From a virus (Duplodnaviria > Caudoviricetes), in IMG/VR virus record IMGVR_UViG_3300027754_000035: 64,000 nt of DNA; one strand, 5' to 3'. Below, one piece after another: positions 10,392 to 63,962 of the stretch. Under the pieces are notes generated by a model, which had not been told where the DNA came from, did not search any database, and saw only the letters and a list, made by a program, of their open reading frames with translations. Both the position numbers and the translations under genes were made by a program. The first letter of the stretch is position 1. Each line of letters begins with the position of its first letter.

Positions 10392-11567
10392 TTATTTTAT
10401 ATTTATCAACGTTTCCTTGTAATCCACCAATTTGTTGACCTTGATTTTGAAAATGTCATATTCAAGCTCACCCGGTTGACCACTGTCTTCCAACATTTGT
10501 TGCAATATGTTAAAGAACTCAAAACTTTGATTGGTAATTTTGTTACCATCAAAGGTCACTACAACATCATTATTTTTTGGTTCATCATATTGTTTGAGCT
10601 TCTTGTTAAGATCATAGCGAGTGTTTTTTTGCTCTGCTTTGATGTATCTGCTGTATTCAACATCTGTATATAATGTATCGCACCAAGGTTCAAGTAGTGC
10701 CACACGATACTCATCACAATTAATCACAACAAAACCTACGTTATACCTATTGGGTACCACAGGCTTCATCATGTCGTTGTGTTTTACAAAATGTCCCCAT
10801 TTACGAATAAAGTTTCTGGCACTCTTGACGTTTTGTTGTTGCCACTCATCACTGTCCTTACCAATGGCCGTGATGGTTGGATTGAACCTACTACCACGAC
10901 ATGTTAGATGATACACACACGCTTCCCACAATTGTACAAACTTGTAGCCCGACAAAAAGAATCGATTGAAGATATCGCTATCTTCTTTGCTGGTTGGTGC
11001 AAAAAGCAAATCGTGACCACCAATCTTTAGAAAATCTTGTTTGTAAATTGCCCATGGAGCAAACACACCCTCTGTGGTTTTATCTTTTCGGCTTACTTTG
11101 GTGGTCAACAACCATTTGTCAAATTCATCCTTTTTGAAAGTTTCGGGTTCCATACCAAAATCTTGGACAATCTTTTCTGGACCGCCTGGATGCAACGGTG
11201 GTTCTATGCGGGTCAAACAAACAACTGTTTGTGGAACAAGATGCTTTTCAATCAACAGATCAGCATTTTTGCTGATATACATGTCAGCGTGGTAAATCAT
11301 CACCACATCATTGGTGGCAACGGTCTCCACCAAAATATTGTAAAGCTCAGTCATACCTTTGCGAGCAGGACCATCATTGCGTATGGCTTTGAAATTTGGA
11401 TCTTGCTGTTGCATTTCTTGACACCATTCCCAAGTACCATCTGAACTAGCATCATCAGCAACACACACTTCGTGATTTTTATGGCTGAGATTGTTACGAA
11501 TCGCATCATAACACCATTTTAGATATTTGAGATTGTTTCTTGCGGGTATAATAAAACTAATGTTCAT
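10392..11567 (-). CDS. GT2-family glycosyltransferase
   Basis: ISFIIPARN, VADDASSDGT, HADM, EDSD, YHLTCRGSR. Confidence 0.9.
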   Translation of the reverse strand: MNISFIIPARNNLKYLKWCYDAIRNNLSHKNHEVCVADDASSDGTWEWCQEMQQQDPNFKAIRNDGPARKGMTELYNILVETVATNDVVMIYHADMYISKNADLLIEKHLVPQTVVCLTRIEPPLHPGGPEKIVQDFGMEPETFKKDEFDKWLLTTKVSRKDKTTEGVFAPWAIYKQDFLKIGGHDLLFAPTSKEDSDIFNRFFLSGYKFVQLWEACVYHLTCRGSRFNPTITAIGKDSDEWQQQNVKSARNFIRKWGHFVKHNDMMKPVVPNRYNVGFVVINCDEYRVALLEPWCDTLYTDVEYSRYIKAEQKNTRYDLNKKLKQYDEPKNNDVVVTFDGNKITNQSFEFFNILQQMLEDSGQPGELEYDIFKIKVNKLVDYKETLINIK

Positions 11568-11581
11568 AACTATAAATATAA

Positions 11582-12334
11582 CTATATCACAACTCCTAAT
11601 GATTTCAACTGATTTAATAATTCCATTATTTGATTTACTTTTGTGACAAGAAATTTAGCATTCAACCGTTGTTGTACAACATGTGTTGCAAAACAACTAA
11701 CGTCAAGTACCTGAGTTTGATTAAATGTGAAAAAGTTGTATTTTTTAATTTCATTTTTTAACAACAATTCGGTAAATTTCATATCAAATTCGAACGGATT
11801 GTAGTCTTCGGACCACACTGGACAGTTCAAAATAGAATCCACATGCACAGCATTTAATCCTCCTCTGATCCACTCGTTTTCTACACCCACCAACAAATTT
11901 TTGTTTTTGGCAAAAATTTTTCGTATTTGTGATTGAAATTCTTCGGATCGATAATGAACCAAGTCAGTGTCTATTTTACAAAATATAGCATCGATATATT
12001 CGTCTTTATGTTGTTCAAGATACTGCTTCAATAAATTGAATTTGCAAGCCATAGAGTTTTGTTGACTTTCAATGAATATTGTTTTGGGACCAAGAAGCGA
12101 CGACAAATACTGTTTGTAGCTTGTATCACCCTTTTGTCCAGACACCAGAACAAAATATGTGTATTTGTGAGTTAATTCTATAAAATTGGTATTGATGGAT
12201 GTGTAGGCATCCATAGAAACATCCAAGAATGTATAGTAACAAATTTGGTTATTCATAGTATCTTCGATTGGCTGTTGCTGCAATACAATCGACTTATGTA
12301 ATACATTCGGTAAAAAACGTTGTATGTCAATCAT
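11582..12334 (-). CDS. putative GT-A fold glycosyltransferase
   Basis: KIDTDL DxD motif; operon context. Confidence 0.55.
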   Translation of the reverse strand: MIDIQRFLPNVLHKSIVLQQQPIEDTMNNQICYYTFLDVSMDAYTSINTNFIELTHKYTYFVLVSGQKGDTSYKQYLSSLLGPKTIFIESQQNSMACKFNLLKQYLEQHKDEYIDAIFCKIDTDLVHYRSEEFQSQIRKIFAKNKNLLVGVENEWIRGGLNAVHVDSILNCPVWSEDYNPFEFDMKFTELLLKNEIKKYNFFTFNQTQVLDVSCFATHVVQQRLNAKFLVTKVNQIMELLNQLKSLGVVI

Positions 12335-13101
12335 AAGTATAGTTTATTATAAGTCTTGGTCATCCAATGGTGTACTTGATTACCATAACTAGTATCTGGT
12401 ATACCGTTGAAATGATATACCCAACCAAACTTGGTGAATGGTAAACCGTCGGTAAGACCCTCCAATAAATTCAGCCCCATCATATTGAATTCATAAGGAA
12501 GTATTTTTGTAGAAACACTGTTTGTCTGCAAAAAGAAATTCATGGGTGTTTGGTCAGTACCCAACTTGATTTGTGTTTCACACTGATAAATCAAGTCTTT
12601 ATTGTCAGAGTAAAACTGTTTGAACTTGTTGAGATGATTTTTATGAGCGGCATTTACAATTTGAAATCCACCATTGATGTAACTCCAAATATCTAGTTCG
12701 TAATCGTTGAACAAAGCTTTGCTGTAACACTCAACACTGCGCATTACCCACTCATACACAACACCGTCATGAACTCCTGTATACAGTCCATTGGTCAATT
12801 CAAAGAAATTTGGACAGTCGGGATGTACAATGGTATCCGCGTCAACAATCAACACTTGATTGTAATCAACACCACTGTTCTCTAATAAATCCAATACGTA
12901 ATAACGCTGCCAAGCCATGCTTGTGATGTTGGTATCCATCAATGGTTGATCCAATACCACAACGTCACAATTATGTTTTTTAGCAAAGTTGCGCCAACTA
13001 CGAATACTCATATCAAATATGCTGCTTATCAATGGTGTATTACGCAGCTTCTTTTCACCGTTATTCGATACAACTGCTGGTATAAAAATAATATTTTTCA
13101 T
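12331..13101 (-). CDS. GT8/GT34-like glycosyltransferase
   Basis: VDADT DxD, YINGG, DQTPMN, YHFNG; start at 13101 (ATGA overlap). Confidence 0.8.
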   Translation of the reverse strand: MKNIIFIPAVVSNNGEKKLRNTPLISSIFDMSIRSWRNFAKKHNCDVVVLDQPLMDTNITSMAWQRYYVLDLLENSGVDYNQVLIVDADTIVHPDCPNFFELTNGLYTGVHDGVVYEWVMRSVECYSKALFNDYELDIWSYINGGFQIVNAAHKNHLNKFKQFYSDNKDLIYQCETQIKLGTDQTPMNFFLQTNSVSTKILPYEFNMMGLNLLEGLTDGLPFTKFGWVYHFNGIPDTSYGNQVHHWMTKTYNKLYL

Positions 13102-13859
13102 TGATATTTTATTTTGATATCTGCCCAAATTTGGTTAATTAAATGATTGCGTTGTTCAATCGGAAATCCAGTAAAGTGCCAAAGATATGTGTATTTGAAA
13201 AAGAAAGGAACTGTGTCGTTGAGTTTGTCATTGTACCACAACAATCCTTTTTTGACCATACCAACTGTGTTCCATGAATATGGAAGATATTTGCACTTTA
13301 TACCCTCTTGCTTCAGATGAAAATTAAGCAAAGTTTGTTCTTTACCTGTGTTTGGTACGTTCCAATTATCTAGCACGGATTTGTTGTCGAGGTAAAACTT
13401 TTTGAGCTTTTCAAAGAATGGTTTGTGGTCTTTTGTGAAAAATAGCACACCACCATTGATATGCTCGCTTAATCCAACATGCATGTCTTTGAATTGTGGA
13501 AATGCTTTGCGATATGCGGTTTGACTGTTGTCCATCCAACTGATGCTGGTTTGGTCCAATACACCAACAAATTCATCGGTGTATAGATCAAAAATATTTG
13601 GAGCATCCCATTTGATCATGGTATCAAAATCGACAATACCAATTTTTTCATAGCTATCACCAACATAGTCAAACACAAACTCTTTGTGCCAGACACTGTA
13701 TTTGACATTGGGCATTTTATTTCGCACAACAAAAAAGTCGATATTGTTTTTGTTGCAGTAATATTGCCATGCGTCAATTGTATGTTCAAAATAGGTTTTG
13801 TGAGAATGTTTTGATAACTCATCCTCAATCGCAACCATCATAATGCAATTTTTATTCAT
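13098..13859 (-). CDS. GT8/GT34-like glycosyltransferase, paralog of 12331
   Basis: VDFDT, HINGGV, EQTLLN, WHFTG. Confidence 0.8.
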   Translation of the reverse strand: MNKNCIMMVAIEDELSKHSHKTYFEHTIDAWQYYCNKNNIDFFVVRNKMPNVKYSVWHKEFVFDYVGDSYEKIGIVDFDTMIKWDAPNIFDLYTDEFVGVLDQTSISWMDNSQTAYRKAFPQFKDMHVGLSEHINGGVLFFTKDHKPFFEKLKKFYLDNKSVLDNWNVPNTGKEQTLLNFHLKQEGIKCKYLPYSWNTVGMVKKGLLWYNDKLNDTVPFFFKYTYLWHFTGFPIEQRNHLINQIWADIKIKYQ

Positions 13860-14422
13860 GAAATCTCTTTGCAGATTAGTCCCTCATAATCATGCAACTT
13901 GCGAGTAAACACTTCACCTGTAGCATGTCCGATTTTTTTAATAATCTCAATTTTGTTGGACAAAATCAACGCATCAACTGCATCTTTAACATCTGGTATG
14001 CTGCCGTAATCGTCGTAGATAAAGTACTTCTTACCAGACGAATTGAAGTTCAATGATCGCAGAGTATCATTGATTACAGCGTCATAGCTATGATTGGCAT
14101 CAACCAAGAATACATCACCCGTATCAATTGGAATTTTTGTGGTATAAATATCTTGGGTATAAAATTTCACATTGGGTCTGTTGGCGTTAAATTCCACGGC
14201 TTGATCAGCACAACTAAGGTTGAAACCAGATACATCTTTGAATAGATAGCTCAATATCTTGGTGGTGTAGCCCAAATTACTACCCCACTCTACACAAATC
14301 TTATCTTTGAATTCCGGCTTGTCAAAAAATTCAAACACATCACGTTTGAACCTATGGCTGGTTGTATCTTTGTGTTGAAACTTATCGGGAATAGTTAACA
14401 ATAGTTCATCAATGATAGCCAT
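13856..14422 (-). CDS. class I SAM-dependent methyltransferase (Methyltransf_24-like)
   Basis: VEWGSNLG, VDANHSY, IYDDY. Confidence 0.75.
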   Translation of the reverse strand: MAIIDELLLTIPDKFQHKDTTSHRFKRDVFEFFDKPEFKDKICVEWGSNLGYTTKILSYLFKDVSGFNLSCADQAVEFNANRPNVKFYTQDIYTTKIPIDTGDVFLVDANHSYDAVINDTLRSLNFNSSGKKYFIYDDYGSIPDVKDAVDALILSNKIEIIKKIGHATGEVFTRKLHDYEGLICKEIS

Positions 14423-14425
14423 ATA

Positions 14426-15232
14426 TTAGTTGTTTCTTTTGTTCATATGTTCGTTGCTCTCCAACACTGTTTTGAGAATGCTCAGATCCACACCAACTTT
14501 GTCGCCATACGCAACCATAGCTTTTGTATCTTTTGGCAAACACTTGCCACCAAATCCACGTTCATCGGCAAACACAGCGGTATGACTACGGTTTGTGCGC
14601 GGGTCCAACAACCACAGATCACGGACTTCGGACCAATGCGTTCCACTCTTTTCACACAAATCGTACAATTCATTAACAAATGCGACTTTCATTGCAAAAT
14701 ATGTGTTTTCAACATACTTGGTAATTTCCGCACTGATACTGTCTGTGACACGATAAGTTTTGCTTGGCCCAGTAATGGGCATATACAAATCAACTAGCTT
14801 ATGACCAACTTCTTTATCATCAGTACCAAAAATAAAGAATGGAGTTTGCTTTACATCTGTAGTAAATCCTTGTGGTGTCCAATATTTACTCTCACCCGCA
14901 AATTCAGGACTAAATACAATCTTCTTGTTGTATTTTTCAGCGAGTCGTTTGGTGGTACCAATTTCGATTGTGGATTTGATCAAAATGATTGGGGTCTGCA
15001 ACCACGCAACACTATCTTCAACAAAGTCTGTGTTGCAGCTATTGTCATCATTTGACGGCGTAGGCACACACACAACACCCACATCGCATTCATTAATGAT
15101 GTCTTTATCGTTGAATCCGGCAATGGCTGGGTCATAGATCCGCACTTCATAATGATCCTTAAAAAAGGCGTGAAATGCCTTGCCCACATAACCAAATCCC
15201 ACGATACCAATTTTAATTTTTGATTTGCTCAT
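14426..15232 (-). CDS. UDP-glucose/GDP-mannose 6-dehydrogenase family protein (short form)
   Basis: GFGYVG Rossmann motif, CVPTP, IKST, FSPEF, GFGGKCLPKD with catalytic Cys. Confidence 0.9.
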   Translation of the reverse strand: MSKSKIKIGIVGFGYVGKAFHAFFKDHYEVRIYDPAIAGFNDKDIINECDVGVVCVPTPSNDDNSCNTDFVEDSVAWLQTPIILIKSTIEIGTTKRLAEKYNKKIVFSPEFAGESKYWTPQGFTTDVKQTPFFIFGTDDKEVGHKLVDLYMPITGPSKTYRVTDSISAEITKYVENTYFAMKVAFVNELYDLCEKSGTHWSEVRDLWLLDPRTNRSHTAVFADERGFGGKCLPKDTKAMVAYGDKVGVDLSILKTVLESNEHMNKRNN

Positions 15233-16157
15233 AAATTGTATTCCAACGTACTTTCCAAATTGTCTCTGAATAATATAGTTGATATAAATCTTTAGATTTC
15301 AAAGAAACGTAATTATAAAATTCAACATCATTCTTTAGTTTGATCGCCAATGCATTTGCACCAACAATGTCACCAACGCCCACCGATAGATCTGGAAACA
15401 AAGTTTGCTGTGTATCCAATCCTTTGTAACCGATGCATGGTATGCCCCAATAAGCACAATTGAGTGCAAATGTGCCGGCAGCGTGTGTACGCATCAAATG
15501 TACTCCTACGTTGAAATTGGCTAGTGTTCGCATCCAATTAGTCCACGTCATATATGGCAGATGCAGAAGATTTGGAAATTGTTCTTCGTTGTTTATTTTG
15601 CGTCCCATACTTGGAACGTAAATTGGCTTACCGAAATTTTGTGCCACAAAATAGCTATCCACGCCACCATACCAACTACAGAAATTGCCGCCAATTATTG
15701 GCATACCATTATTTTCTCTAATAACTCCAGCTAGAGTATCTGTAATCATTAGTGATTGTAGATTGAATGTGGGTTTTTTGAATATACCTTTGAAGTACGC
15801 AATATCACTAATATTATGAACCAGCAGAAAATCCATCTCACTTAGAAAATTGATATAATTGACTTGTTGAGCATAATCGTAGTCTTGATAATACCAAGCT
15901 GGTCCTTCTTGCATCACCGCCACTTTTTTGCTGCGACGTTTTACACTATCCAACAATGCGCCTGTATCAATCAATTCTAATTTCTTTGGTAGAATTACAA
16001 CGACGAGATCGTATGTTGTATTTGAAAAAAACCAGTCTTTGTAATTTTCATGGTGTGCGTTCAATGCAATTTGCCAAGCAAACTCAGTTCTACAGTTATC
16101 AAAGGTTCTGGAGGTCTTGCCTGTAAATCCATTTTGGCTAATAAAACAAATGTTCAT
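15213..16157 (-). CDS. GT-B fold (GT4-like) glycosyltransferase
   Basis: AGTFALNCAYWGIPCIG C-terminal GT-B signature. Confidence 0.75.
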   Translation of the reverse strand: MNICFISQNGFTGKTSRTFDNCRTEFAWQIALNAHHENYKDWFFSNTTYDLVVVILPKKLELIDTGALLDSVKRRSKKVAVMQEGPAWYYQDYDYAQQVNYINFLSEMDFLLVHNISDIAYFKGIFKKPTFNLQSLMITDTLAGVIRENNGMPIIGGNFCSWYGGVDSYFVAQNFGKPIYVPSMGRKINNEEQFPNLLHLPYMTWTNWMRTLANFNVGVHLMRTHAAGTFALNCAYWGIPCIGYKGLDTQQTLFPDLSVGVGDIVGANALAIKLKNDVEFYNYVSLKSKDLYQLYYSETIWKVRWNTIYEQIKN

Positions 16158-17239
16158 AACAGATATTTTTTGTCTGAAATGGATCGCACCGTGTCTGTAA
16201 TAAACATACTTAGTGCATAATCCAACCGATTTCTTATATTTTTAATTTTTATTTTATGATTATTAAAATTTTGTATTCCATCCACCAACTTATCTTCAAA
16301 ATCTGACAAATCATCTTTATAAAAGATACACGTATCATCATGAAATAAGTCTGGATTTGTAACTATGTGTCTAATATCACCTTTACAAATTACATTTCCA
16401 TAATTTATTGCGTCTAATTCTCTGGAATTTATTTCCCCAAATCCATGTGGTGAAATCATGATTTTTGATTCTAAACAAACTTGCGCATAAGAGTTCGCAT
16501 CTAATTTTCCAGATTGTTCGGATGTTAAAATATTGAAATTATATTTTTCTAAGTTTTTTAACGTTTTGAAGATATTCAATCTATGATCGTTATAATATTT
16601 ACTTATTTCTTTTTTATAATTAGAATGTGTATTCGAAATACCGACCAAACAAATCGCATCATACTTGTAATTTACAATATCAATATTAATATTGCTTGGA
16701 TTATAAGTCATGCCACTGTTGTAAATCCAATTTGTATTTGATAAAGCTATTTTTGAGTTGAGTAATTCTACGTCGTTATTGGACAATTTATATTCTAAGT
16801 CTGGCACAAGCGGCCACCAATATCGACCAAACGACGTTGGTTTTGTATATAAACTTAAATCTCTATAATAATGCGACTTAAAGTATTTCAAACCAGGACA
16901 TTGTTTGAATACATCAAAAATACCATGCAACATGACGGAATCGTTAGTATCAAAGAAATAGAATGGCTTATCCAATGATTTTAGAAATTCAACACCACTT
17001 GCCACTGATTGTTCATATTCCAATTGCGTATTAACCACAGATCCCCAACCTACAAAGTAACAATCCGCACGTCTTTTATCATCTACAAAGTCAATTTCAT
17101 GGTTTTTGAACTTGTTCTTTAACTCTATATATGGAAGAAATGTTCTCCTATTTCTTCCTGTTATTTTAGAGACATTATTTTGACACCTTTTATTTGATAC
17201 AAATTCTATGTCTTGAGTTTCTAAGATTTTAATTTTCAT
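16154..17239 (-). CDS. putative glycosyltransferase (CgeB/Glyco_trans_1_2-like C-terminus)
   Basis: SKIMISPHGFGEINSRELDAINYG; AT-rich coding sequence. Confidence 0.65.
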   Translation of the reverse strand: MKIKILETQDIEFVSNKRCQNNVSKITGRNRRTFLPYIELKNKFKNHEIDFVDDKRRADCYFVGWGSVVNTQLEYEQSVASGVEFLKSLDKPFYFFDTNDSVMLHGIFDVFKQCPGLKYFKSHYYRDLSLYTKPTSFGRYWWPLVPDLEYKLSNNDVELLNSKIALSNTNWIYNSGMTYNPSNINIDIVNYKYDAICLVGISNTHSNYKKEISKYYNDHRLNIFKTLKNLEKYNFNILTSEQSGKLDANSYAQVCLESKIMISPHGFGEINSRELDAINYGNVICKGDIRHIVTNPDLFHDDTCIFYKDDLSDFEDKLVDGIQNFNNHKIKIKNIRNRLDYALSMFITDTVRSISDKKYLL

Positions 17240-18231
17240 CTTGACTTGATACGAGCTTTGAAGTCTTGATATGTTAAAAATTTACCGTCACCTGACGTCA
17301 AAACTTGCATATTCTTGCTGGAAATTTCTTTGAATACTTTCCACCAATCACCCTTTTCATCACCACAATATCCTCGGTTATTGTCTTCACCAAGAACACA
17401 GGTGCGTTTACCAGCCCTACGACGTGCATGAATCTTCAATAAATTCTTGAATACGTATTGAACATACTTGGTTCCCATCATCTTCTTGGCGACGAACGCA
17501 AAGCTTTCGTCATCATTGTGAACAAAGCAACCTGGAATATTTACGCCGCTGCGCACCAGATCACTGCTGATGACAAAGCAACTACCATCGATCTTGGGTT
17601 CTCGCAATACTTCGATCTTTAGATCATCAATTGTGGCGTTGATGGCGTTCATATTTTCTATTGGTAGATATGATTTGGCTTGATTCACATTGTCAACATC
17701 TGTATCATCGTAAACGTGATCGATATAATTTGGATGCACTGTGCAGTCCCAACTGTTGTCCCACATCTTGCGGTCAGCAAAACATGCCGTGAATCGATAT
17801 ACCGATAGATTGTTTATACTTGGTACCAATGACTCCAAAGCCATAAATGCTTCTTTTGGAAAACAACTGTCGGTTTCACCCCACATTAGTATGTCTACTT
17901 TGTTGCAGTAATTGGCGTTGAAATCTCGACGATAACAAGTCTGTGTATACCACTCATCATCGTTATCAACAATTCTGATATTGGTTGGTATTGCCGATGA
18001 CAATCTGGAAGCTTCGGCGTGAAATCTAGCGATGAGTTCCTTTTTACCTGTCTTGGTGGTATCTATCTTTTCAAAAAATTGAGATACGTTAAACACAAAA
18101 TCGAGATACACATTATCTTTGTTTTCAACGGTACTCAATAAGTTTAACAATCCATCAACATATGTGGACACCATATTGATTTCGTAAAACATTACGTGTA
18201 CACCAATTGCATATTTTAATTTCAGTATCAT
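17236..18231 (-). CDS. GT-A (GT2-like) glycosyltransferase
   Basis: WGETDS, KIDGS, HNDDES; operon context. Confidence 0.65.
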   Translation of the reverse strand: MILKLKYAIGVHVMFYEINMVSTYVDGLLNLLSTVENKDNVYLDFVFNVSQFFEKIDTTKTGKKELIARFHAEASRLSSAIPTNIRIVDNDDEWYTQTCYRRDFNANYCNKVDILMWGETDSCFPKEAFMALESLVPSINNLSVYRFTACFADRKMWDNSWDCTVHPNYIDHVYDDTDVDNVNQAKSYLPIENMNAINATIDDLKIEVLREPKIDGSCFVISSDLVRSGVNIPGCFVHNDDESFAFVAKKMMGTKYVQYVFKNLLKIHARRRAGKRTCVLGEDNNRGYCGDEKGDWWKVFKEISSKNMQVLTSGDGKFLTYQDFKARIKSR

Positions 18232-18968
18232 AGTTTATATTGTTGGATAATATCATGCAGATGTTGAGGTATCAATACTTTATTTTCACATAGCCCCAAA
18301 AATTTGTTGCGATCTTTTTCATGCAACAGTTTTACATGAACTGCCTTGATCGGTTTTATAGCACATTCATATCTGTCTTCAAACGACGTCATACCCAAAT
18401 TATACTGTGGAGTCAGTGTGGTGCAGTCAGCATTAAAAGTTGGTAGTGTGGTTTGTAGATGCAAAACGATTTGTTCATCAGAATACCATTTGGGCCCACG
18501 ACCATCGTCCAGCTTAGAAATTCCGTCTCTATTTGTTTCGTAAAATTCGCATATAAAATCCAATAGAATCTGTGACCGTTTGTTGAAAAAGAACGATCCA
18601 CCGTTCCAATTTGTATTTTTTTTGCTATACGGACAGCCTGCAAATCTACCAACAAATTCTGGATATTCGAAATGATCTATTTGCCAAACATCGTAGTCAT
18701 GTAACCAAATATCGTCGTGGTATTGTGCGAGTAGATCTTTACACACATAAAATTTGTTGGCCCATACGTTGAAATCACACAACCTTTTTGGAAATGTGTT
18801 TTTAATACCACGATACTCAAAATCAAAATTAGTAACAACAATCAGATCCTCTGGGTTACAACCGTAGTGCAAGCTATTGTCAATCTGGGCATATAAATAC
18901 CGCAGTATGTTATCGTGAGCATGATATGGAGTATCATCCAACTTTAGATATAAAACGACATTCTTCAT
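18228..18968 (-). CDS. putative GT-A nucleotide-sugar transferase
   Basis: LHDYD DxD, WNGGSFF, SDEQ, VHVK. Confidence 0.65.
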   Translation of the reverse strand: MKNVVLYLKLDDTPYHAHDNILRYLYAQIDNSLHYGCNPEDLIVVTNFDFEYRGIKNTFPKRLCDFNVWANKFYVCKDLLAQYHDDIWLHDYDVWQIDHFEYPEFVGRFAGCPYSKKNTNWNGGSFFFNKRSQILLDFICEFYETNRDGISKLDDGRGPKWYSDEQIVLHLQTTLPTFNADCTTLTPQYNLGMTSFEDRYECAIKPIKAVHVKLLHEKDRNKFLGLCENKVLIPQHLHDIIQQYKL

Positions 18969-20247: not shown

Positions 20248-20249
20248 AA

Positions 20250-21581: not shown

Positions 21582-21584
21582 ATT

Positions 21585-23658: not shown

Positions 23659-23900
23659 TTTTTATCTTTATTAGGAGTGGAAAGTTGAAACGGCTGATCA
23701 TAGCTAAGTTTTTGACATAGACTATCACTAATTTCTTTGCGAAAATTAGAATCCTCGATATATTTCTCAAGGCACTTATTGACAAAATCTTGAAATGAGA
23801 TTTTGCCTCTGACATTTATTTCTTTGAACTGAGTGTACAGTTCAATGTCTAGTTTTACTGTGGTAACAAATGGATCCATAACATATTCACATACATACAT
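23655..23900 (-). CDS. small ribbon-helix-helix-like DNA-binding protein
   Basis: TTVKLDIELYTQFK...SFQDFVNKCLEKY strand-helix-helix pattern; start may be 23879. Confidence 0.55.
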   Translation of the reverse strand: MYVCEYVMDPFVTTVKLDIELYTQFKEINVRGKISFQDFVNKCLEKYIEDSNFRKEISDSLCQKLSYDQPFQLSTPNKDKK

Positions 23901-23952
23901 ATGCAGATATGTTTGGCTCGATTATTTATATTTAAGGTATATTATCGACGTG

Positions 23953-24723: not shown

Positions 24724-24730
24724 ACTAATT

Positions 24731-51134: not shown

Positions 51135-51172
51135 AACGTCTTGGCGATATACATATATAGAGAAATAGCGTT

Positions 51173-53070: not shown

Positions 53071-53077
53071 ATACGAA

Positions 53078-55987: not shown

Positions 55988-55990
55988 AAC

Positions 55991-56002
55991 TACTTATAAG
56001 TA
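55991..56002. promoter_or_regulatory. palindromic TACTTATAAGTA, candidate bidirectional late-promoter element
   Basis: Perfect 12-bp palindrome in the 27-nt gap between divergent genes; contains TAnTTAT on both strands. Confidence 0.5.
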
Positions 56003-56014
56003 GAAAGAAATACT

Positions 56015-56626
56015 GTGCGGATTTCATTACAACATACCAAATGCGTATTATTGACCGTTGAAAAATACCGTCAACGATATTTGGAAGTAATGGAACGTAT
56101 AACGGACAAATTAACAGCTACACCTTTTTATGGATTTGATCTGCCTAGACCACACGGTTTCAATAACTCAATAATCAAGCTTTACAATTCGGTTGTGCCT
56201 CCAGTTTTAATCATTGAGGACGATGTGGACCTAACAGAACATTATATCAATGAATTTGATGTTCCTGATGATGCCGATGCCGTGTATTTGGGTACATCAT
56301 CGTGGGGAGGAAAAAATGGAATAAGTGCGTGGAAAAATATTGAATTAATTCCACATGATGATCTGCTTTTTAGAGTTGATGGTGTTGCAACCACCCACGC
56401 AATATTGTATTTATCTAACCGATATCTCGATCATATTTGCAACATCACTTTCAAACAATATCCTCAAAACACCGACCGATGTCTTGACTATTATATTGCT
56501 CAAGAACACAGTAAGTTTAACATTTATGCGTGTCGTAAACCCATGTTTTACCAAAACGACGGCGGCAATGTTTTTTTAACTAGTTATAGTTTACAACAAG
56601 TTTATCAAGATAAGTATGGCACGTAG
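56015..56626 (+). CDS. GT25-like glycosyltransferase
   Basis: IIEDDV, PDDADAVYLG, THAILY, FYQ; GTG start. Confidence 0.7.
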   Translation: MRISLQHTKCVLLTVEKYRQRYLEVMERITDKLTATPFYGFDLPRPHGFNNSIIKLYNSVVPPVLIIEDDVDLTEHYINEFDVPDDADAVYLGTSSWGGKNGISAWKNIELIPHDDLLFRVDGVATTHAILYLSNRYLDHICNITFKQYPQNTDRCLDYYIAQEHSKFNIYACRKPMFYQNDGGNVFLTSYSLQQVYQDKYGT

Positions 56627-57341
56627 AAAATTATTTACATATTGGGAGGGTCCAAAACCTGAGTTCGTAACAATGTGCGAGGAAATTATTGCGCACAGAG
56701 TTCAACACACATTTGATTATATACGCCTCACACCAGAAAATTTGTATGAGTACATACCATATGAAGAATTTCCCCCAAATTATCATCTGATCAAAGTAAT
56801 TGCTCATAAAGCAGACTACTTACGTTGTCTGTTGATGATACACCACGGTGGCATTTGGTTAGATGTAGATCAAATTCTATTGAACGATTTGTCTTGTATC
56901 GGTGAGTTGTTGAACACCCACGATTATGTATCTTATGAATGGGCACCACAATGCCCGTCAATAGGGTTTATAGCTGCCAACCCACAAAACATATTTTTTG
57001 AACAATGGCGAGATAGTATGCGTGAACAACTGTCGGCTGACTACCAATTTCCATGGGTAGGATTAAGTTATGATCTTATGTGGCCGATGTTGCAGCAGCT
57101 ATTACGAGAAGATAAACTTAAATATTATGCATTTCCAGCAACAAGTAGTTTTGCACCACTGAGTCATGAACAGTTAGATTGTTATTTTGAACCCAACAAT
57201 TGCAGCATAAATACTCAAGGATTATACTCAGTAAAATTGTACAATTCTCAATTTCCACAATGGTTCAAAAATGCATCACGACAAGAGATACTACAAAGAG
57301 ATTGTTGGATATCACATCTTTTTAGAGAGAATTTACCATAG
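56616..57341 (+). CDS. GT32 / capsular polysaccharide synthesis protein
   Basis: FTYW, ADYLRC.L...HGGIWLDVD. Confidence 0.85.
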   Translation: MARRKLFTYWEGPKPEFVTMCEEIIAHRVQHTFDYIRLTPENLYEYIPYEEFPPNYHLIKVIAHKADYLRCLLMIHHGGIWLDVDQILLNDLSCIGELLNTHDYVSYEWAPQCPSIGFIAANPQNIFFEQWRDSMREQLSADYQFPWVGLSYDLMWPMLQQLLREDKLKYYAFPATSSFAPLSHEQLDCYFEPNNCSINTQGLYSVKLYNSQFPQWFKNASRQEILQRDCWISHLFRENLP

Positions 57342-58067: not shown

Positions 58068-58655
58068 ATGGACTCTGTAAAAAGCATATTTGAAAACATT
58101 TATGTTAATAATGTTTGGGATGGTCCAGAGAGTCGGTCTGGAACTGGATCTAGTTTAGACCAAACACAAAATCTTCGTAGTTGGCTACCAAAAATAATTG
58201 ACCGATATCAAATTACATCAATACTCGATGTTCCGTGTGGTGATTATTGGTGGATGCCACATGTTGACCTAAAAGGTGTACGATATGAAGGATGGGATAT
58301 TGTGGATGATATTATTGCCCACAATTCTCAAAAATATAAGAATGTTACGTTTCGAGTAAACAACATCATTGAGACTGTGCCATATGGTTTCGATTTGATA
58401 TTGTGTCGTGATCTTCTCAGCCATTTGTGTTTCAATGATGCGCTGTGTGCATTGAACAATTTCAAAAACAGTGGTGCAAAATATTTGATGGCAAATACAT
58501 ATGGGACATCGGATGTTAACATTGATATTGTCACTGGCAAGTGGTTACCAATTAATTTGCTAAAGTCTCCATACAATCTACCCCCGTATTTGGATTGCAT
58601 TGCTGACTGTGCAAATGGTATAAGCGATAAACAGATAGCAATATGGAAGTTGTGA
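58068..58655 (+). CDS. class I SAM methyltransferase, paralog of 53665
   Basis: SGTGS, ILDVPCGD, GWDIV, DLILCRDLLSHL. Confidence 0.85.
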   Translation: MDSVKSIFENIYVNNVWDGPESRSGTGSSLDQTQNLRSWLPKIIDRYQITSILDVPCGDYWWMPHVDLKGVRYEGWDIVDDIIAHNSQKYKNVTFRVNNIIETVPYGFDLILCRDLLSHLCFNDALCALNNFKNSGAKYLMANTYGTSDVNIDIVTGKWLPINLLKSPYNLPPYLDCIADCANGISDKQIAIWKL

Positions 58656-58697
58656 AAGAAATTCACTCGTAATCAAAATATTGCAATATTTATCTAT

Positions 58698-59990
58698 ATG
58701 ATCAACAATCTTACCAAAAATATTAAGTTGTCGGGTGGTGTTGGTGACAACACACCAACTGAACAGGTTGATCCAAATCAATTGAGTATTGGTATTCAAA
58801 TCGAAATGGAACATACCAACGATGTCGCTATTGCGCAAGAAATAGCCATGGACCATTTGACCGAAGACCCCGAATACTATACCAAGTTGGTGAAGGCTGG
58901 TTTGGCAAAAGAATTTCAACCATCAACAAATAGTGGTTTTGGTGATCCAGATCAAAGCTTCAATGATGCTGCTCGTCTTGGCAAGTCTGTAACCGCAGGC
59001 CCTGGTAACAACATTGTTGGAACCATTGGCGGTACGCCAGATGGACACACAGATGGTCGCAACAGCGAACCGTTGGTCAATAAAACTATTGACATTGAAT
59101 TGGAATCCAAGAAATCTAAGAAGAAATCTGTGCCGAACAACTCCAAATTGTGGAGTAGAGCAAAGGCATTAGCCAAAGCCAAGTTTGATGTATATCCATC
59201 AGCTTATGCAAATGCTTGGGTATCCAAGTGGTACGAACAACAAGGTGGTGACTGGCATATGAGTGAAATTGATGATAGACTCAACAGAAATCCTATACAA
59301 GTTTTCGACGGTCCTGATCCCGCTGAAGTCAGTCCTGAAGGATCTGGTACTTTTGGTAGTGGATATGATTTTGTCGGATATGCAGAAAACAAGACTAATT
59401 CTATGAAACAACAAAAACTCAAGGAAATTATCAGACGCCTTGCCCTACAATATTTGAGGGAGCAAGAAGAAGTTGGTGCCACCGCTGCACCAGAAACCGA
59501 AACCCCAGATGTAGCCGCACCAGAGGCACCAGAGGCACCAGAGGCAAGTTCCGGTGAATCTGTCACTTTGACATTGGATCGTGACACTGCACAAAAATTA
59601 CATGATTTGTTGATGCAACAATTGCAATCTGGCGAAAGCACACCACCAGTGGATGATGCCGACAGCGAAGTTGAAACTGGCGGAAGTCAGACGGTTCAAA
59701 CTCCAGGCTCGGGTGCTCCATTTGGTAGCGATGAGGGTTCAGATGAAACCGCAATCGGTGAAATCACACATGAAGAATCCAAGGATATCGATGAAGCCAA
59801 GAAGAAATGGATTCAAAAGGCAATTCATAAGAGCAAAGAAGGTGCATTGCACAAGCAATTGGATGTACCACAAGGAGAAAAGATTCCAGTAGCCAAACTC
59901 GCAGCAGCAGCAAAAAAGGGTGGCAAGTTGGGTCAACGTGCTAGATTGGCACAAACCTTGAGCAAGCTGAAAAAGAAGAAGAATAAATAA
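58698..59990 (+). CDS. mosaic multi-domain protein, putative internal head protein
   Basis: DUF5661-like GIQIEMEH...DHLTEDPEYY; YPSAYANAW module; acidic APE linker; basic C-terminal KWIQKAI...RARLAQTL module. Confidence 0.7.
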   Translation: MINNLTKNIKLSGGVGDNTPTEQVDPNQLSIGIQIEMEHTNDVAIAQEIAMDHLTEDPEYYTKLVKAGLAKEFQPSTNSGFGDPDQSFNDAARLGKSVTAGPGNNIVGTIGGTPDGHTDGRNSEPLVNKTIDIELESKKSKKKSVPNNSKLWSRAKALAKAKFDVYPSAYANAWVSKWYEQQGGDWHMSEIDDRLNRNPIQVFDGPDPAEVSPEGSGTFGSGYDFVGYAENKTNSMKQQKLKEIIRRLALQYLREQEEVGATAAPETETPDVAAPEAPEAPEASSGESVTLTLDRDTAQKLHDLLMQQLQSGESTPPVDDADSEVETGGSQTVQTPGSGAPFGSDEGSDETAIGEITHEESKDIDEAKKKWIQKAIHKSKEGALHKQLDVPQGEKIPVAKLAAAAKKGGKLGQRARLAQTLSKLKKKKNK

Positions 59991-60029
59991 TCCAGTATCT
60001 TGACCGCCGCATATCCGATCAAAATAGGG

Positions 60030-60064
60030 ATCTCCGAGCAGATGTTGATCATCTGCTCGGAGAT
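60030..60064. other. perfect 15-bp inverted repeat hairpin (terminator or structured element)
   Basis: atctccgagcagatg-ttgat-catctgctcggagat, followed by a short T tract. Confidence 0.7.
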
Positions 60065-60099
60065 TTAACTTAAAAACATTTTATTTGAGTCTCAAAAAT

Positions 60100-61098
60100 A
60101 TGAACGAAATAAGCACAATGCCTGGGTATGCTAAATGGTATGACATGGCGAATAAAATAATTCCAAAGCTGCAAAAAATTAAAGCTGTTGGTAAAGCTAA
60201 AACCGCCGCAAAAGATATTGTAACGCAGAGTGCAGTCACCAATATTCTGGTTGCGATTGGTAAAACTGCACCAAAAATTTCTAAACAGTTGGAAGATTTG
60301 TTGAAGTATACGTTCACTCACCAAGATTTAACTAAGTTACACCAAAACGGTCGCATAGACCTCCAGATTTGGAGAGATCCATCCTACGACGGTGTTCTCA
60401 ATAACAAAGAAGTTGAGGAGGCACTAGCTATGAGCGAAGGCTGGAAGGATTGGGTAGCTGCTGGTGCAATTGGTTTGGGAGCATTGGCTGGTAACGACGT
60501 TCAAGCTTCCAAGCTTAAACCCACAGCACCAATTGCGCATTCCACTGTAAAAAGTAGTGATGTATCGTTGTTGAATCACAAAACCAGCGACTATGTTGGT
60601 CACTGGGAAGGTAAGAAACACTCGGTATACAAAGATAGTAACAATTTGGATACGATTGGTATTGGCCATTATATGAACAATACTGCTCAAGATCGTCAAT
60701 TATTTACCACACTGTTTGGTGATAAAGTAAACTACGACGATCTGTTGAGTGGCAAACAAAAACTCAGCGACGAGCAGATTGATAAATTGTTTAATGTTGA
60801 TGTAAAAATCAAAGAGAAATTGGCCAGCAAGAAAATTAACAATTTTGGTAGTCTACCAACCAATGTTAAAAATGCTATTATCAATGCTTTTTACAGAGGT
60901 GATATTGGACCCAAAACAATTGGGTTTATGAATGCTGGTAAATGGGGATCTGCCGCAAAAGAATATTTGAATCACCCCAATGCAAAAAGTGGCCCTGACC
61001 AAATTCAACGCAGAATGCGTACCAATGCTTTGGCACTTGCTCAATTTGCACAAAATCAAAAAGAGTATATAACGCAGAGTGATTACGTAATCGGATAA
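60100..61098 (+). CDS. T4-type (GH24) lysozyme with long N-terminal extension
   Basis: WEG(E)...KD(D)...DTIGIGH(T) with T4L spacing (+9, +6); start ATG 60100 or TTG 60085. Confidence 0.85.
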   Translation: MNEISTMPGYAKWYDMANKIIPKLQKIKAVGKAKTAAKDIVTQSAVTNILVAIGKTAPKISKQLEDLLKYTFTHQDLTKLHQNGRIDLQIWRDPSYDGVLNNKEVEEALAMSEGWKDWVAAGAIGLGALAGNDVQASKLKPTAPIAHSTVKSSDVSLLNHKTSDYVGHWEGKKHSVYKDSNNLDTIGIGHYMNNTAQDRQLFTTLFGDKVNYDDLLSGKQKLSDEQIDKLFNVDVKIKEKLASKKINNFGSLPTNVKNAIINAFYRGDIGPKTIGFMNAGKWGSAAKEYLNHPNAKSGPDQIQRRMRTNALALAQFAQNQKEYITQSDYVIG

Positions 61099-61100
61099 AT

Positions 61101-61469
61101 ATGAACGATTGGTCCACAATTGATTTGGGTCATCTTCAAACAATGACTCAAATGTCGGCACTACAATCTGGTGCTGGTATACGCCACCAAGCTGCACAAA
61201 TCGACACAGATGGGTTTGATCCCTACGAAGTCATGCTGCGGCGTAAAAAACGTCAAGAAGACCCACAAGCGTTCCAAGAACCGGTGGTACAACAACATCA
61301 TACCCAAGACATTGTTGCGCTTGAAGAGTTTTGCCAACAACATGGCATTCTTGGATTTAACTGTGGCACCATGAGTCCCCGAGCAGCATTACAATTTTTG
61401 AAATCAAAAATGGGTATACGAGAAGAACCCAAAGTTACAAACCTAAATAAAAGTGTATTATATGGATAA
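61101..61469 (+). CDS. hypothetical protein
   Basis: 122 aa; LEEFCQQHGILGFNCG. Confidence 0.7.
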   Translation: MNDWSTIDLGHLQTMTQMSALQSGAGIRHQAAQIDTDGFDPYEVMLRRKKRQEDPQAFQEPVVQQHHTQDIVALEEFCQQHGILGFNCGTMSPRAALQFLKSKMGIREEPKVTNLNKSVLYG

Positions 61470-62130
61470 TTCAATTGATGCGTTGGCCTGTGAACATAAT
61501 TTCATCACCGATAAAACGGTGCATGGTCACAACTACAACAAAACATATTGTCGTTATTTTGATCAATTGCGCAATAATCCTGTTAAGCTACTAGAGATTG
61601 GAGTATCAGCGGGTCACTCAGTGCAAGTATGGACAAAATATTTTGCCAATGGAACTGTTGTTGGATTTGATCAAGATATTCGCATCAATCAATATGGTGC
61701 AACTGACAGACTTACTTTGATTCAAGGTGATCAACAAGACTCTGAATTATTGACAAAAATTAGCAACGAACATGGCCCATTTGATATTATCATTGACGAT
61801 GGTAGTCATATTGATGCTATTACAAAAAAGTCTTTTGACACACTATTTCCGTTGTTGGCACCCGGCGGTCTTTATATTGTAGAAGATCTACACACGTCGT
61901 ATCAACCAATTGTGCATGGTATACCAAATAGTTGTGTGTTTATTGATCACGTTAAAGAATTGATTGATTGTGTAAACTCACACGGTTGTTGTAGTTCTGG
62001 TGATATGTTGCGATGCACACACACCAATCCAGAGTCTCAGTATTGTTCACACGACAAAATGCAAAAAATGGACAAACTCATAGAATTTGTCCATGCTTAC
62101 AAGAATCTTGTGTTTATTAAAAAGTATTGA
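61462..62130 (+). CDS. MycE/TylE-like sugar O-methyltransferase
   Basis: TDK..HGHNY, LLEIGV, QGDQQD, FDIIIDDGSH, PGGLYIVEDLHTSY. Confidence 0.85.
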   Translation: MDNSIDALACEHNFITDKTVHGHNYNKTYCRYFDQLRNNPVKLLEIGVSAGHSVQVWTKYFANGTVVGFDQDIRINQYGATDRLTLIQGDQQDSELLTKISNEHGPFDIIIDDGSHIDAITKKSFDTLFPLLAPGGLYIVEDLHTSYQPIVHGIPNSCVFIDHVKELIDCVNSHGCCSSGDMLRCTHTNPESQYCSHDKMQKMDKLIEFVHAYKNLVFIKKY

Positions 62131-62131
62131 T

Positions 62132-62407
62132 TTATGCTGGATCAATAATGGTGATCTTGTTGCGACGCAACTCACTGGGCAACAATTCTTGTAGTGGTTC
62201 TAAACAATTAACACAGTATGGAACATTGATGGGTACCAATCCATCTTTGTCGGTGCCAGCCAAAATTTTGCTGACTTTTCTAAACATAACACCGTTTTGA
62301 AACACTGAGTTTTTACACTCCGGGCATTCAACAGAAGTTGTGTCCTTGATGCCAAAGTTTTGCTTGGTGGGTGGCATATTCATGCCTTCGATTTTGTTGT
62401 TAAACAT
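62132..62407 (-). CDS. small zinc-ribbon protein
   Basis: CPEC...CVNC. Confidence 0.7.
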   Translation of the reverse strand: MFNNKIEGMNMPPTKQNFGIKDTTSVECPECKNSVFQNGVMFRKVSKILAGTDKDGLVPINVPYCVNCLEPLQELLPSELRRNKITIIDPA

Positions 62408-62410
62408 AAT

Positions 62411-62812
62411 TTATTTTATTACTTTTCTTTTTTTGTAATCTTCCAATGCTGCATTAAGTGCCTCTGTGGCCAAAACTGAACAATGAATTTTTACTGGGGG
62501 GAGGCCGCCCAACGCAGTAACAATATCATCATTGTTAAAATTTTTCTGAAGTTCTTCTATAGTTCTGCCTTTTATTAGTTCTGTAGCCATAGATGAAGCA
62601 GCAATTGCACTACCACAACCAAAAGTTTTGAAGCGGGCGTCAGTAATTGTTCCGGTACTTTCATCAATCTTAAGACTGATTTTCATGATATCACCACAGG
62701 CTGCGGCACCTACTTCACCAACTGCATCAGCATCTTTCACATCACCCATATTACGTGGGTTAATAAAATGATCCATTACCGTTTCGTTGTATAGTGTATA
62801 GCTTTCGATCAT
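62411..62812 (-). CDS. iscU: IscU/NifU-N Fe-S cluster assembly scaffold
   Basis: DHFINPRN, ACGD, FGCGSAIA, LPPVKIHCS; all three Cys present. Confidence 0.95.
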   Translation of the reverse strand: MIESYTLYNETVMDHFINPRNMGDVKDADAVGEVGAAACGDIMKISLKIDESTGTITDARFKTFGCGSAIAASSMATELIKGRTIEELQKNFNNDDIVTALGGLPPVKIHCSVLATEALNAALEDYKKRKVIK

Positions 62813-62822
62813 ATACCTATAA

Positions 62823-63962
62823 TTATACGGTCAAACCCAATAAACTCAAGTCATTTCTAATCATCTTTTCTACCAACTGATTAAATGATGTCTTTGGTGA
62901 CCATTGTAATTCTTGTCTGGCCAAGTTACTATTTCCCAACAATAGATCCACTTCGGCCGGGCGATAGAACTTGGGATTGATCCGTATCAATACACTCGAC
63001 GCAGCATCATACTTGTCAACGTCGGTCGGTGTGATACTAAACTCTTCTGATGTTCCATTACCATGCCAACAACCTTCAATACCCGCATACTTGAACGCAA
63101 GTTCCACAAACTCCTTGATGGTGTGAGTTTCATTACTACTCAACACATATTCTTGAAGCTTCATATTGCTGTCAATGTCAACACGATACTTTTCTTGATT
63201 CAACATACGCCAAATACCATCAACGAAGTCTTCGGCATCACTCCAATCACGTTTGGCATATACGTTGCCAAGTTCAATTGCCTCAAATGTCTTGCCATTG
63301 ACCAAAGCCTGCTTGATACGAGCAATACCCTTGGTGATCTTACGAGTAACAAACTCTTCACCACGACGAGTTCCTTCATGATTAAACAACAGACCTTGCA
63401 CGGCATACATATTGTAACTCTCTCTGTATACCTTTACCAACTGGCGAGCAGCACTCTTGCTTGCACCATAGGGACTGCGTGGTCGTGCTGGATGATTTTC
63501 ATCTTGTGGTGTATAAGCAACATTACCATATTCTTCAGACGAGCCAGCGTTATAGAACCTACATGTTGGATTATGTTGACGAATAGCTTCTAGGATATGA
63601 ATGATACCAGTTGTATTGCATTCCCAAGTCTGGGCTGGAAAGTCCCAACTTGATCCAACAAATGTTTGTGCAGCTAGGTTGATAAAATAGTCAGGCTTGA
63701 TTTGTTCAATTGTTTTTGAGATACTATGCGCATCACTCAGATCAAAATTAATCAACTTGAAACGACTTTCATTTTCAAGATGGCGTAGATTTTCATGATT
63801 CTTAATACTTAAGCGTCTGGCTCCGCCAAAGATAGTGTAATCGGTGTTTTTAAGCAAGTAGTCAACCATGTGGCTACCATCTTGACCGGTTACACCGGTA
63901 ACAAATACGGTCTTTTTGTTATTCATAAATTGCTTTGAATCTGAAATGTTGTATATTTCCAT
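62823..63962 (-). CDS. gmd: GDP-mannose 4,6-dehydratase
   Basis: TGVTGQDGS, NLAAQTFV, SSEEYG, SPYGASK, LFNHEG, FVTRKIT, RDW, FYRPAEV. Confidence 0.95.
   Translation of the reverse strand: MEIYNISDSKQFMNNKKTVFVTGVTGQDGSHMVDYLLKNTDYTIFGGARRLSIKNHENLRHLENESRFKLINFDLSDAHSISKTIEQIKPDYFINLAAQTFVGSSWDFPAQTWECNTTGIIHILEAIRQHNPTCRFYNAGSSEEYGNVAYTPQDENHPARPRSPYGASKSAARQLVKVYRESYNMYAVQGLLFNHEGTRRGEEFVTRKITKGIARIKQALVNGKTFEAIELGNVYAKRDWSDAEDFVDGIWRMLNQEKYRVDIDSNMKLQEYVLSSNETHTIKEFVELAFKYAGIEGCWHGNGTSEEFSITPTDVDKYDAASSVLIRINPKFYRPAEVDLLLGNSNLARQELQWSPKTSFNQLVEKMIRNDLSLLGLTV

Follow-up and report, generated by a model that had tools for sequence, protein, structure and literature searches.

A glycosyltransferase- and methyltransferase-rich gene set with a conserved core and exchangeable cassettes in a freshwater T4-like jumbo phage

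Giant viruses encode glycosylation machinery of their own, for example the enzymes behind the capsid glycans of chlorovirus PBCV-1, including the glycosyltransferase-glycosyltransferase-methyltransferase protein A064R, and the fibril clusters of mimivirus. Large T4-like cyanophages and pelagiphages are known to carry glycosyltransferase (GT)-rich islands termed lipopolysaccharide (LPS) or cell-wall islands, for which up to 13 GTs have been reported (PMC7824862, PMC7029224, PMC12801897). For example, in cyanophage P-SSM2 15 genes form a cluster in which at least eight GT families are represented (PMC7824862), cyanophage S-SCSM1 has 13 cell-wall genes (PMC9602691), and pelagimyophages have similar GT-rich regions (PMC7029224). 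Virion O-glycosylation, on the other hand, has been described in mycobacteriophages Che8, Corndog, and Myrna (Freeman et al. 2023, cited in PMC12619734 and PMC12801897). Here we analyze a 64,000-nt stretch of viral DNA, IMG/VR record IMGVR_UViG_3300027754_000035 (hereafter the window), which belongs to a T4-like jumbo phage from freshwater and encodes a set of sugar-adding, sugar-making, and methylating enzymes that is the largest we have found reported for a phage. About 80 open reading frames (ORFs) were called in the window, nearly all of which were scanned against Pfam, and those left unexplained were also compared with PHROGs.

The cyanophage and pelagiphage islands, which the first-pass annotation of this DNA had overlooked (PMC7824862, PMC7029224, PMC12801897), resemble the window in belonging to large aquatic T4-like myophages, in holding clustered paralogous soluble GTs of many families, in being polymorphic and devoid of export genes, in being known from genes alone, and in carrying nucleoside diphosphate (NDP)-sugar enzymes (GMD, Ugd, epimerases, a TagD-type cytidylyltransferase, and a GH130-like gene, a type also present in cyanophage S-SCSM2R; PMC12801897). 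The window differs from them by its at least 23 GT-like genes and nine methyltransferases within 64 kb, its heavy O-methyltransferase content, and several GT families without a Pfam model, as well as by its other lineage, freshwater origin, probable Verrucomicrobiota host, and split replication module. It shares with the mycobacteriophages the use of phage-encoded soluble GTs without export machinery, but those phages have few GTs and, according to the articles citing that work, glycans shown experimentally on capsid and tail-tube C termini, whereas here tens of enzymes are known from genes alone. Bacterial O-antigen and capsule loci and Gtr cassettes are similar in their NDP-sugar genes, several GTs, modifying enzymes, and cassette-like variability, but none of their defining components (priming phosphoglycosyltransferase, flippase, polymerase, chain-length regulator, ABC transporter, or GtrA/GtrB/Gtr(type)) occurs in the window. 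The likeness to giant viruses lies in host-independent sugar-nucleotide enzymes, soluble GTs, and sugar O-methyltransferases, and GT32, GT77-like, GT25, and DUF3431 are mainly eukaryotic or giant-virus families; the first-pass description of the system as giant-virus-style is an analogy and not a relationship, the bearer being a tailed phage.

Enzyme repertoire and glycosyltransferase families

At least 23 GT-like ORFs are supported, 12 firmly and 11 as probable (Table 1), spanning GT-A and GT-B folds and about 10 sequence families; the firm GTs are those that have a Pfam match above the cut-off, a strong PHROG match, or a predicted fold, or that are close paralogs of a gene so supported. The figure of about 30 given by the first-pass annotation is a plausible upper estimate, with 12 island ORFs (16154, 17236, 18228, 33828, 34260, 36276, 40998, 44630, 47671, 51840, 56015, and 57360) left without assignment. 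The families it had named (GT2, GT4, GT8-like, GT25, GT32, GT77-like, DUF3431, and divergent GT-A) were all recovered in place by Pfam or fold, as were, by Pfam, exactly nine S-adenosylmethionine (SAM)-dependent methyltransferases where about nine had been expected and the predicted donor-supply enzymes (GMD, Glf, the short Ugd-like protein, a nucleotidyltransferase, and the LicD-cytidylyltransferase). The T4-like replication genes said to be interleaved with them are likewise present, namely DNA polymerase B, gp44, a gp62-like gene, dUTPase, and a PD-(D/E)XK nuclease.

Whether the divergent ORFs have GT folds had been set beforehand as a test, and both of the Pfam-less orphans that were folded do, one being GT-B and one GT-A. 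The first, 15213-16157 (314 amino acids (aa)), has 4,340 homologs, all of them lacking a Pfam domain and many 60-75% identical, with more than 100 clusters at least 60% identical, and it has no PHROG model. In a Foldseek search of the PDB, its AlphaFold2 (AF2) model (pLDDT 90.3) aligned with BshA (TM-score 0.72) and also with SenB, PimA, PglA, and T4 alpha-glucosyltransferase (AGT), all at a probability of 1.0, the TM-scores to AGT (0.61-0.66) lying below that to BshA. Its matches in BFVD are viral GTs, among them giant-virus proteins and a cyanophage protein labeled 'DNA alpha-GT'. Judged by the predicted fold, 15213 is a GT-B/GT4-like glycosyltransferase. The family would merit a definition of its own.

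The second family is represented by two paralogs, 42904 and 45094, of 371 and 374 aa and 38% identity, which lie within 42904-46218 (+) and are separated by the MT24 gene 44023 and a 155-aa ORF. A search of 5.8 billion proteins yielded 22 homologs for the family of 42904, all without a Pfam domain, and the family alignment reveals an invariant E-E-D (E108-E109-D110) directly after the strand formed by residues 103-107 (beta-4), the usual DxD site, together with a C-terminal helical bundle. The top 50 PDB matches listed by Foldseek for the AF2 model of 42904 (pLDDT 86.8) are GT-A enzymes (probability 0.97-1.0), and by predicted fold 42904/45094 is a new GT-A family.

A further divergent protein, the 181-aa product of 23113-23658, resembles the N-terminal domain of GT4 enzymes (Atlas score 0.90 to Glyco_transf_4), and its gene overlaps by 10 nt that of the GT1-C-domain protein 22154-23122. 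The pair is kept in 15 relatives and in Microcystis myophage Mel-JY01, where the proteins measure 190 and 302 aa and are both annotated as GTs; by analogy, the two may form a split GT-B recalling Alg13/Alg14-type enzymes. Among the other probable GTs, Glycos_transf_1 was matched by 12 of the 16 orthologs across the groups of 36673, 37737, 38891, and 50190, of which 37737 and 38891 are paralogs (1e-36). A reduced hhalign comparison tied 39883 and 41906, and no other orphan, to the GT-A orphan family at about 80% probability, and the Atlas neighbors of 39883 are GT2-like, while 24731 and 11582 have weak matches to hidden Markov models. The protein 46215-47108, 75-86% identical among relatives, is a putative propeller whose language-model features (score 0.96) place it near GH130 mannoside phosphorylases, DUF1861, and beta-mannosyltransferases of fungi. 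Most orphan ORFs stayed unexplained after the PHROGs scan, Pfam run on the pooled orthologs of the orphans gave three weak GNT-I matches (best 0.0018) and otherwise noise, and a PDB sequence search with the GT77-like protein 49516 gave no match.

The nine SAM methyltransferases are of the sugar-O-methyltransferase type. Among the donor enzymes, the Ugd-like protein 14426 (268 aa; 68-84% identical in relatives and 34-35% in distant ones) is without the C-terminal UDP-binding domain and may work with a partner protein or in another role. The LicD-cytidylyltransferase fusion, a single polypeptide found in this strain only, has a cytidylyltransferase half closest to ethanolamine-phosphate (2.4e-25) and choline-phosphate cytidylyltransferases and a LicD half closest to FKRP; going by these similarities, it could both make a CDP-alcohol and move the phospho-alcohol onto a glycan. 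The enzyme content and the conservation of the island B operon in five related contigs support a predicted capacity to build a complex methylated glycan, in agreement with the first-pass annotation.

Phage identity, conserved core, and cassettes

Several lines of evidence support the assignment of this DNA to a phage, as already proposed from the letters alone, and more precisely to a T4-like backbone split by two islands. The window encodes a gp43-type family-B polymerase with an exonuclease domain, an AAA + Gp44_lid protein, a phrog_225 clamp loader, and a deoxynucleoside monophosphate (dNMP) kinase, genes that place it with T4-like myophages of the Tevenvirinae/Kyanoviridae type. By tblastn, the polymerase shares 38.9% identity with its counterpart in Mel-JY01, the closest isolate, and 27-30% with those of T4-like cyanophages. 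Three IMG/VR viral contigs (G001-G003; polymerases 81% and 73% identical) are syntenic across the whole window, and the T4 Gp23 capsid gene (5e-72) occurs in a more distant relative (G005; 124 kb; polymerase 39% identical). Independent assemblies show this gene order again, among them the three IMG/VR contigs, three ENA/JGI scaffolds of 164-229 kb, and one Logan contig, and near-identical DNA is present in freshwater or lake metagenomes of 11 studies from 2017-2025. Because the syntenic IMG/VR contigs of 48-65 kb have a CheckV completeness of 21-24%, the genome would measure roughly 230-290 kb. The moraphage lineage (PMC12619734), for which Bacteroidota hosts are predicted, was considered as an identity and rejected, nothing shared with the window having been found beyond core GTs.

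The best genome matches of the IscU gene are all Verrucomicrobiota (74-81% identity, some on megabase contigs), with other phyla at 65% or below, and on this single gene the host is probably a member of the Verrucomicrobiota and not a cyanobacterium. The first BLAST matches had pointed to a cyanophage, a reading that was dropped in view of the polymerase identities and the IscU result; these likewise speak against a cyanobacterial or SAR11 host, as in the phages with LPS islands, with IscU alone carrying the host assignment. IscU is the best host marker of the window, and no IscS lies close by.

The first-pass annotation had described a glycan factory of about 50 kb. Glycan and orphan genes together do occupy about 42 kb, but they form two islands plus scattered genes and not one block, and DUF5661, endolysin-like, and IscU genes lie among them. 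Both islands are inserted in the T4-type replication module and have a GC content of 34-38%, against 39-43% for the backbone; across 10392-63962 the coding fraction is 99%, with 4-nt overlaps at 21 same-strand gene junctions. Island A and the polymerase block set the clamp-loader genes 8609-9088 (gp62-like) and 32053-33012 (gp44) about 23 kb apart; in Mel-JY01 a small ORF alone separates the two.

A core is common to all relatives and consists of GT2 10392, Ugd-like 14426, GT-B 15213, GT2 19600, GT-B 20250, GT1 22154 with 23113, and the 34-52 kb operon. Within it, the 20250-23658 segment was found by tblastn in 14-15 loci, even at about 40% polymerase identity, and is also present in Mel-JY01, going by its annotation, and in the Logan contig (L056), which also carries the island A backbone, present in reduced form in Mel-JY01. 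The operon of island B shows gene-for-gene synteny, at 40-86% aa identity, in the three ENA/JGI scaffolds (L043, 229 kb; L054, 164 kb; L055, 179 kb) and in G002 and G003. The variable cassettes, by contrast with this core, differ in presence or absence among G001-G003, L043, L054, L055, and L056, and the one at 52447-57341 had no match in any relative compared. Directly behind the polymerase, the TylF-type O-methyltransferase gene is absent in G001-G003, in agreement with which a lake strain in run X26 carries 20 nt in its place (joint 30133 to 30854).

Candidate acceptors of the glycan

In a hydropathy scan of the window, every ORF had at most two hydrophobic segments and none encoded a polytopic membrane protein, and the Pfam scan of about 80 ORFs found no priming transferase, Wzx flippase, Wzy polymerase, ligase, ABC transporter, or Gtr family; with no polytopic or export protein in the window, the system would be a soluble cytoplasmic assembly line. 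Donors would be supplied by GMD (GDP-4-keto-6-deoxymannose), Glf (UDP-galactofuranose), the Ugd-like protein, an NDP/CMP-sugar nucleotidyltransferase, and the cytidylyltransferase-LicD protein, and enzymes acting in sequence in the cytoplasm would yield a branched, O-methylated, phospho-alcohol-decorated hetero-oligosaccharide, the inner part of which would be conserved and made by the core enzymes, whereas the outer part, made by the cassettes, would be strain-specific. The acceptor, which is the least certain step, would be a phage-made virion protein of the capsid, tail, or fiber, possibly with Ser/Thr/Pro-rich tracts like those of 5123-6706, and the outcome would be a particle with a variable glycan coat, as in mycobacteriophages, chloroviruses, and mimiviruses.

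Assembly of a methylated glycan in the cytoplasm on a phage-made (virion) protein is the reading toward which we lean, with a chance a little short of even, based on the soluble nature of the system, the extreme conservation of the core GTs, the experimental precedents, a mucin-like protein, and a late-type motif. That the window holds no membrane or export component favors a cytoplasmic acceptor, and the strong conservation of the 15213 family would be easier to understand if the acceptor were conserved and encoded by the phage than if it were a variable host surface. The Ser/Thr/Pro-rich mucin-like gene at 5123-6706 lies 3.7 kb from island A, and Tandem Repeats Finder (TRF) resolves in it an 18-nt repeat (TPSLTA) of 32 diverged copies (84% match) and a near-perfect 12-nt repeat (AASP) of 11.7 copies; from its composition, it is a candidate, putative O-glycosylation acceptor. 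A T4-late-type TATAAATA motif is located 23 nt upstream of position 23900, where the first gene of the core GT operon has its start codon, and is weak evidence for this reading.

Several observations weigh against a virion acceptor. G001-G003, which have the same GT operon, keep residues 1-124 of the mucin-like protein only, as a small stand-alone ORF, and a search with this N-domain found no fused homologs. The protein thus cannot be the conserved acceptor, a role for which it had been considered and then dropped on the outcome of that search, and its stalk and tip are a strain-specific fusion. The ORFs of the window include no structural gene, so that no capsid or tail acceptor tract is in view, and late-promoter motifs are not significantly enriched in it (TATAAATA, 9 versus 4.5 expected; ATAAATA upstream of genes, 4 versus about 1.4). 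The repertoire of the window (GT2, GT4, GT8, GT25, GT32, LicD, Glf, GMD, and Ugd) is one of classic LPS and capsule families, comparable islands of T4-like cyanophages and pelagiphages are interpreted in print as modifying the host O-antigen (PMC7824862, PMC7029224, PMC9602691), and soluble GTs can use undecaprenyl-linked intermediates that are made and exported by host enzymes. Eight contigs of 150-290 nt in lake metatranscriptome run X25, 90.7-99.6% identical (seven at 97% or above), fall on replication and island B genes; they are not counted as evidence of expression because DNA carry-over is possible and most of the island is uncovered.

The chief competing explanation, which we consider unlikely but by no means negligible, is remodeling of the host surface. 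In the cytoplasm, the phage GTs would intercept host undecaprenyl-linked or lipid A-core intermediates and turn them into an O-antigen, capsule, or exopolysaccharide of changed structure with methyl or phospho caps, which host machinery would then export. The changed surface of the infected cell might serve, for instance, to keep out superinfecting phages, to escape grazers, or to stop progeny from adsorbing again. Terminal O-methylation and phosphate caps are known as O-antigen chain terminators, as in E. coli O8/O9a, where the O-methyl/phosphate caps added by WbdD end chains in ABC-transporter-dependent O-antigen synthesis. LPS and capsule loci typically hold an enzyme repertoire of this kind, LicD-type enzymes that transfer phospho-alcohols are characteristic of LPS and teichoic acids, and the cassette-type strain variation is like that of O-antigen loci. 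Published work on the GT islands of pelagiphages and T4-like cyanophages (PMC7824862, PMC7029224, PMC9602691, PMC12801897) also takes such remodeling as its standard view, although no T4-like phage island of this type is known from experiment to change LPS. The window, however, is without a priming transferase, flippase, polymerase, ligase, ABC transporter, or Gtr-type membrane protein, more than 40 kb devoted to a transient phenotype would be hard to account for in a presumably lytic phage, and very high conservation of core GTs over many phages would be unexpected if the acceptor were a variable host glycan.

T-even phages glycosylate modified bases of their DNA and thereby block restriction. 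Phages with DNA glycans have also been described more recently (Pyle et al. 2024, as cited in PMC12619734), and the clade-wide core GTs (20250, 22154 with its 181-aa partner, and 15213) might analogously glycosylate modified bases against restriction. We regard this as improbable, even though these genes sit among those for dUTPase, the PD-(D/E)XK nuclease, the dNMP kinase, and the polymerase, are kept in every relative examined, and include 15213, with its structural alignment to T4 AGT and its cyanophage 'DNA alpha-GT' match in BFVD. GT4 enzymes such as BshA fit the 15213 model better than AGT does, and no hydroxymethylase, thymidylate-synthase-like, or other base-modifying gene was found among the scanned ORFs of the window. 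DNA glycosylation takes one to a few GTs and therefore cannot account for more than 20 GTs, nine O-methyltransferases, Glf, GMD, and LicD. Finally, the idea that the DNA represents a capsule or O-antigen island of a bacterium or a misassembled phage-bacterium chimera, as its bacterial-looking GT, GMD, Glf, and IscU genes (the last with its Verrucomicrobiota identity) could suggest, is effectively refuted by the T4-type replication genes flanking the islands on both sides and lying between them, by the recurrence of gene order in independent assemblies and of near-identical DNA across runs of 11 studies, and by the absence of bacterial housekeeping and membrane export genes among the scanned ORFs.

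Gene neighborhood and implications

Table 1. Features of the 64,000-nt window in order of position (MT, SAM methyltransferase; firm and probable refer to GT assignments; a single number is the start of a gene)
Position	Strand	Feature	Support
5123-6706	+	Mucin-like protein: 124-aa N-domain, ~32 TPSLTA repeats, ~12 AASP repeats, Cys-rich C-domain	
8609-9088		gp62-like clamp-loader subunit	PHROGs phrog_225
8.6-9.8 kb region		dNMP kinase, with the gp62-like gene	PHROGs
10392-25708 (10.4-25.7 kb)	-	Island A, ~20 tightly packed leftward genes	
10392-11567	-	GT2	Firm; Pfam
11582		GT-like	Probable
11582-14422, 16154-17239, 18228-18968, 23953-24723, 30139-30852, 52447-57341		Variable cassettes	
12331-13128	-	GT8-like	Probable; Pfam 22 bits, under cut-off 24.3
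13098-13859	-	GT8-like, paralog of 12331	Probable
13856		MT	Pfam
14426-15232	-	Ugd-like, short	Pfam, N-terminal and central domains only
15213-16157	-	GT-B/GT4-like	Firm; predicted fold
18965		MT	Pfam
19600-20247	-	GT2	Firm; Pfam
20250	-	GT-B, 443 aa	Firm; PHROGs phrog_2170 at 1e-11, cited for the 20250-23658 core
20250-23658	-	Clade-wide core: GT-B, dUTPase, GT1, 181-aa protein	
21585-22157	-	dUTPase	Pfam
22154-23122	-	GT1 (GT1/GT4 group), 322 aa	Firm; Pfam
23113-23658	-	GT4 N-domain-like, 181 aa	Probable
24731		GT-like	Probable
25476-26384		PD-(D/E)XK nuclease	Pfam
27416-30133	+	DNA polymerase B (gp43-type)	Pfam, tblastn
27416-33012	+	T4-type replication block between the islands: polymerase, TylF cassette, 137-aa ORF, conserved 245-aa ORF, gp44	
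30139-30852	+	MT (TylF)	Pfam
32053-33012	+	gp44 clamp-loader ATPase	Pfam AAA + Gp44_lid
33.0-57.9 kb	mixed	Island B	
33047-52475		Island B conserved operon: NTP_transf_3, GT1 34854, GT-B candidates, GT-A array, MT24, 46215, DUF3431, Glf, GT77-like, GT25	
33047-33862		NTP_transf_3 (MobA/IspD-like nucleotidyltransferase)	Pfam
34854-36272		GT1 (GT1/GT4 group)	Firm; Pfam
36673, 38891, 50190		GT-B candidates	Probable; weak GT1 matches, Pfam
37737		GT-B candidate	Probable
39883, 40998(?), 41906, 42904, 45094		Orphan GT-A array of island B	Firm, 42904 and 45094; probable, 39883 and 41906
44023		MT (MT24)	Pfam
46215-47108	+	GH130/beta-mannosyltransferase-like propeller	Language-model features (Atlas)
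47105-47707		DUF3431	Pfam
48353-49552		Glf (UDP-galactopyranose mutase)	Pfam 237 bits
49516-50193		GT77-like (Nucleotid_trans)	Firm; Pfam
51173-51850		GT25	Firm; Pfam
52447-57341		Cassette of this phage only: MTs 52447/53078/53665, GT32 54243, LicD fusion, 203-aa ORF, GT32 56616	
52447, 53078, 53665		MTs	Pfam
54243-54980		GT32 (Gly_transf_sug)	Firm; Pfam
54977-55987	-	LicD + cytidylyltransferase fusion	Pfam
56616-57341		GT32 (Gly_transf_sug)	Firm; Pfam
58068-63962		Scattered glycan genes: MT 58068, MT24 61453, GMD 62823	
58068-58655		MT	Pfam
58698		DUF5661 protein	Pfam
60085		Endolysin-like gene	Pfam/PHROGs
61453-62130		MT (MT24)	Pfam
62411-62812	-	IscU/NifU_N scaffold gene, intact	165 bits
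62823-63962		GMD	Pfam 348 bits

Two further gene pairs lie upstream of island A. An ORF with a DruA (Druantia) domain at 3916-5094 (+; Pfam 8.4e-20) adjoins UvdE, and this pair is kept in G002, G003, and L056; in a lytic-type phage backbone, the DruA domain could be a decoy, an anti-defense gene, or a shared nuclease fold. At 1-3133 (+), a MoxR/AAA_5 ATPase gene is followed by one for a 710-aa protein without a family match, a pair kept in G001 and G002 that presumably recalls the CobS/CobT-like pairs of cyanophages.

Whatever the target of the glycan, the window points to new GT families, namely the E-E-D GT-A (22 known members) and the Pfam-less GT-B (about 4,300 members), and provides a clear example of a conserved core with exchangeable cassettes. 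Because the phage recurs in lakes of 11 studies, it can be tracked and possibly isolated. In its fullest form, which we hold more tentatively than the choice of a virion protein as acceptor, our proposal is that a T4-like jumbo phage of Verrucomicrobiota may coat its own virion with a giant-virus-grade, strain-variable, O-methylated, phospho-alcohol-decorated glycan made by more than 30 enzymes, at least two GT families among them being new to Pfam, so that core and cassettes together would amount to a viral 'O-antigen' diversifying under pressure from host receptors, defenses, or grazers. If the virion is indeed where the glycan is placed, no bacteriophage glycosylation system known so far would come near this one in complexity, the idea of a 'glycan shield' would reach beyond mycobacteriophages and giant viruses to phages abundant in the environment, and the assumption that the GT islands of aquatic T4-like phages modify host LPS would be challenged.

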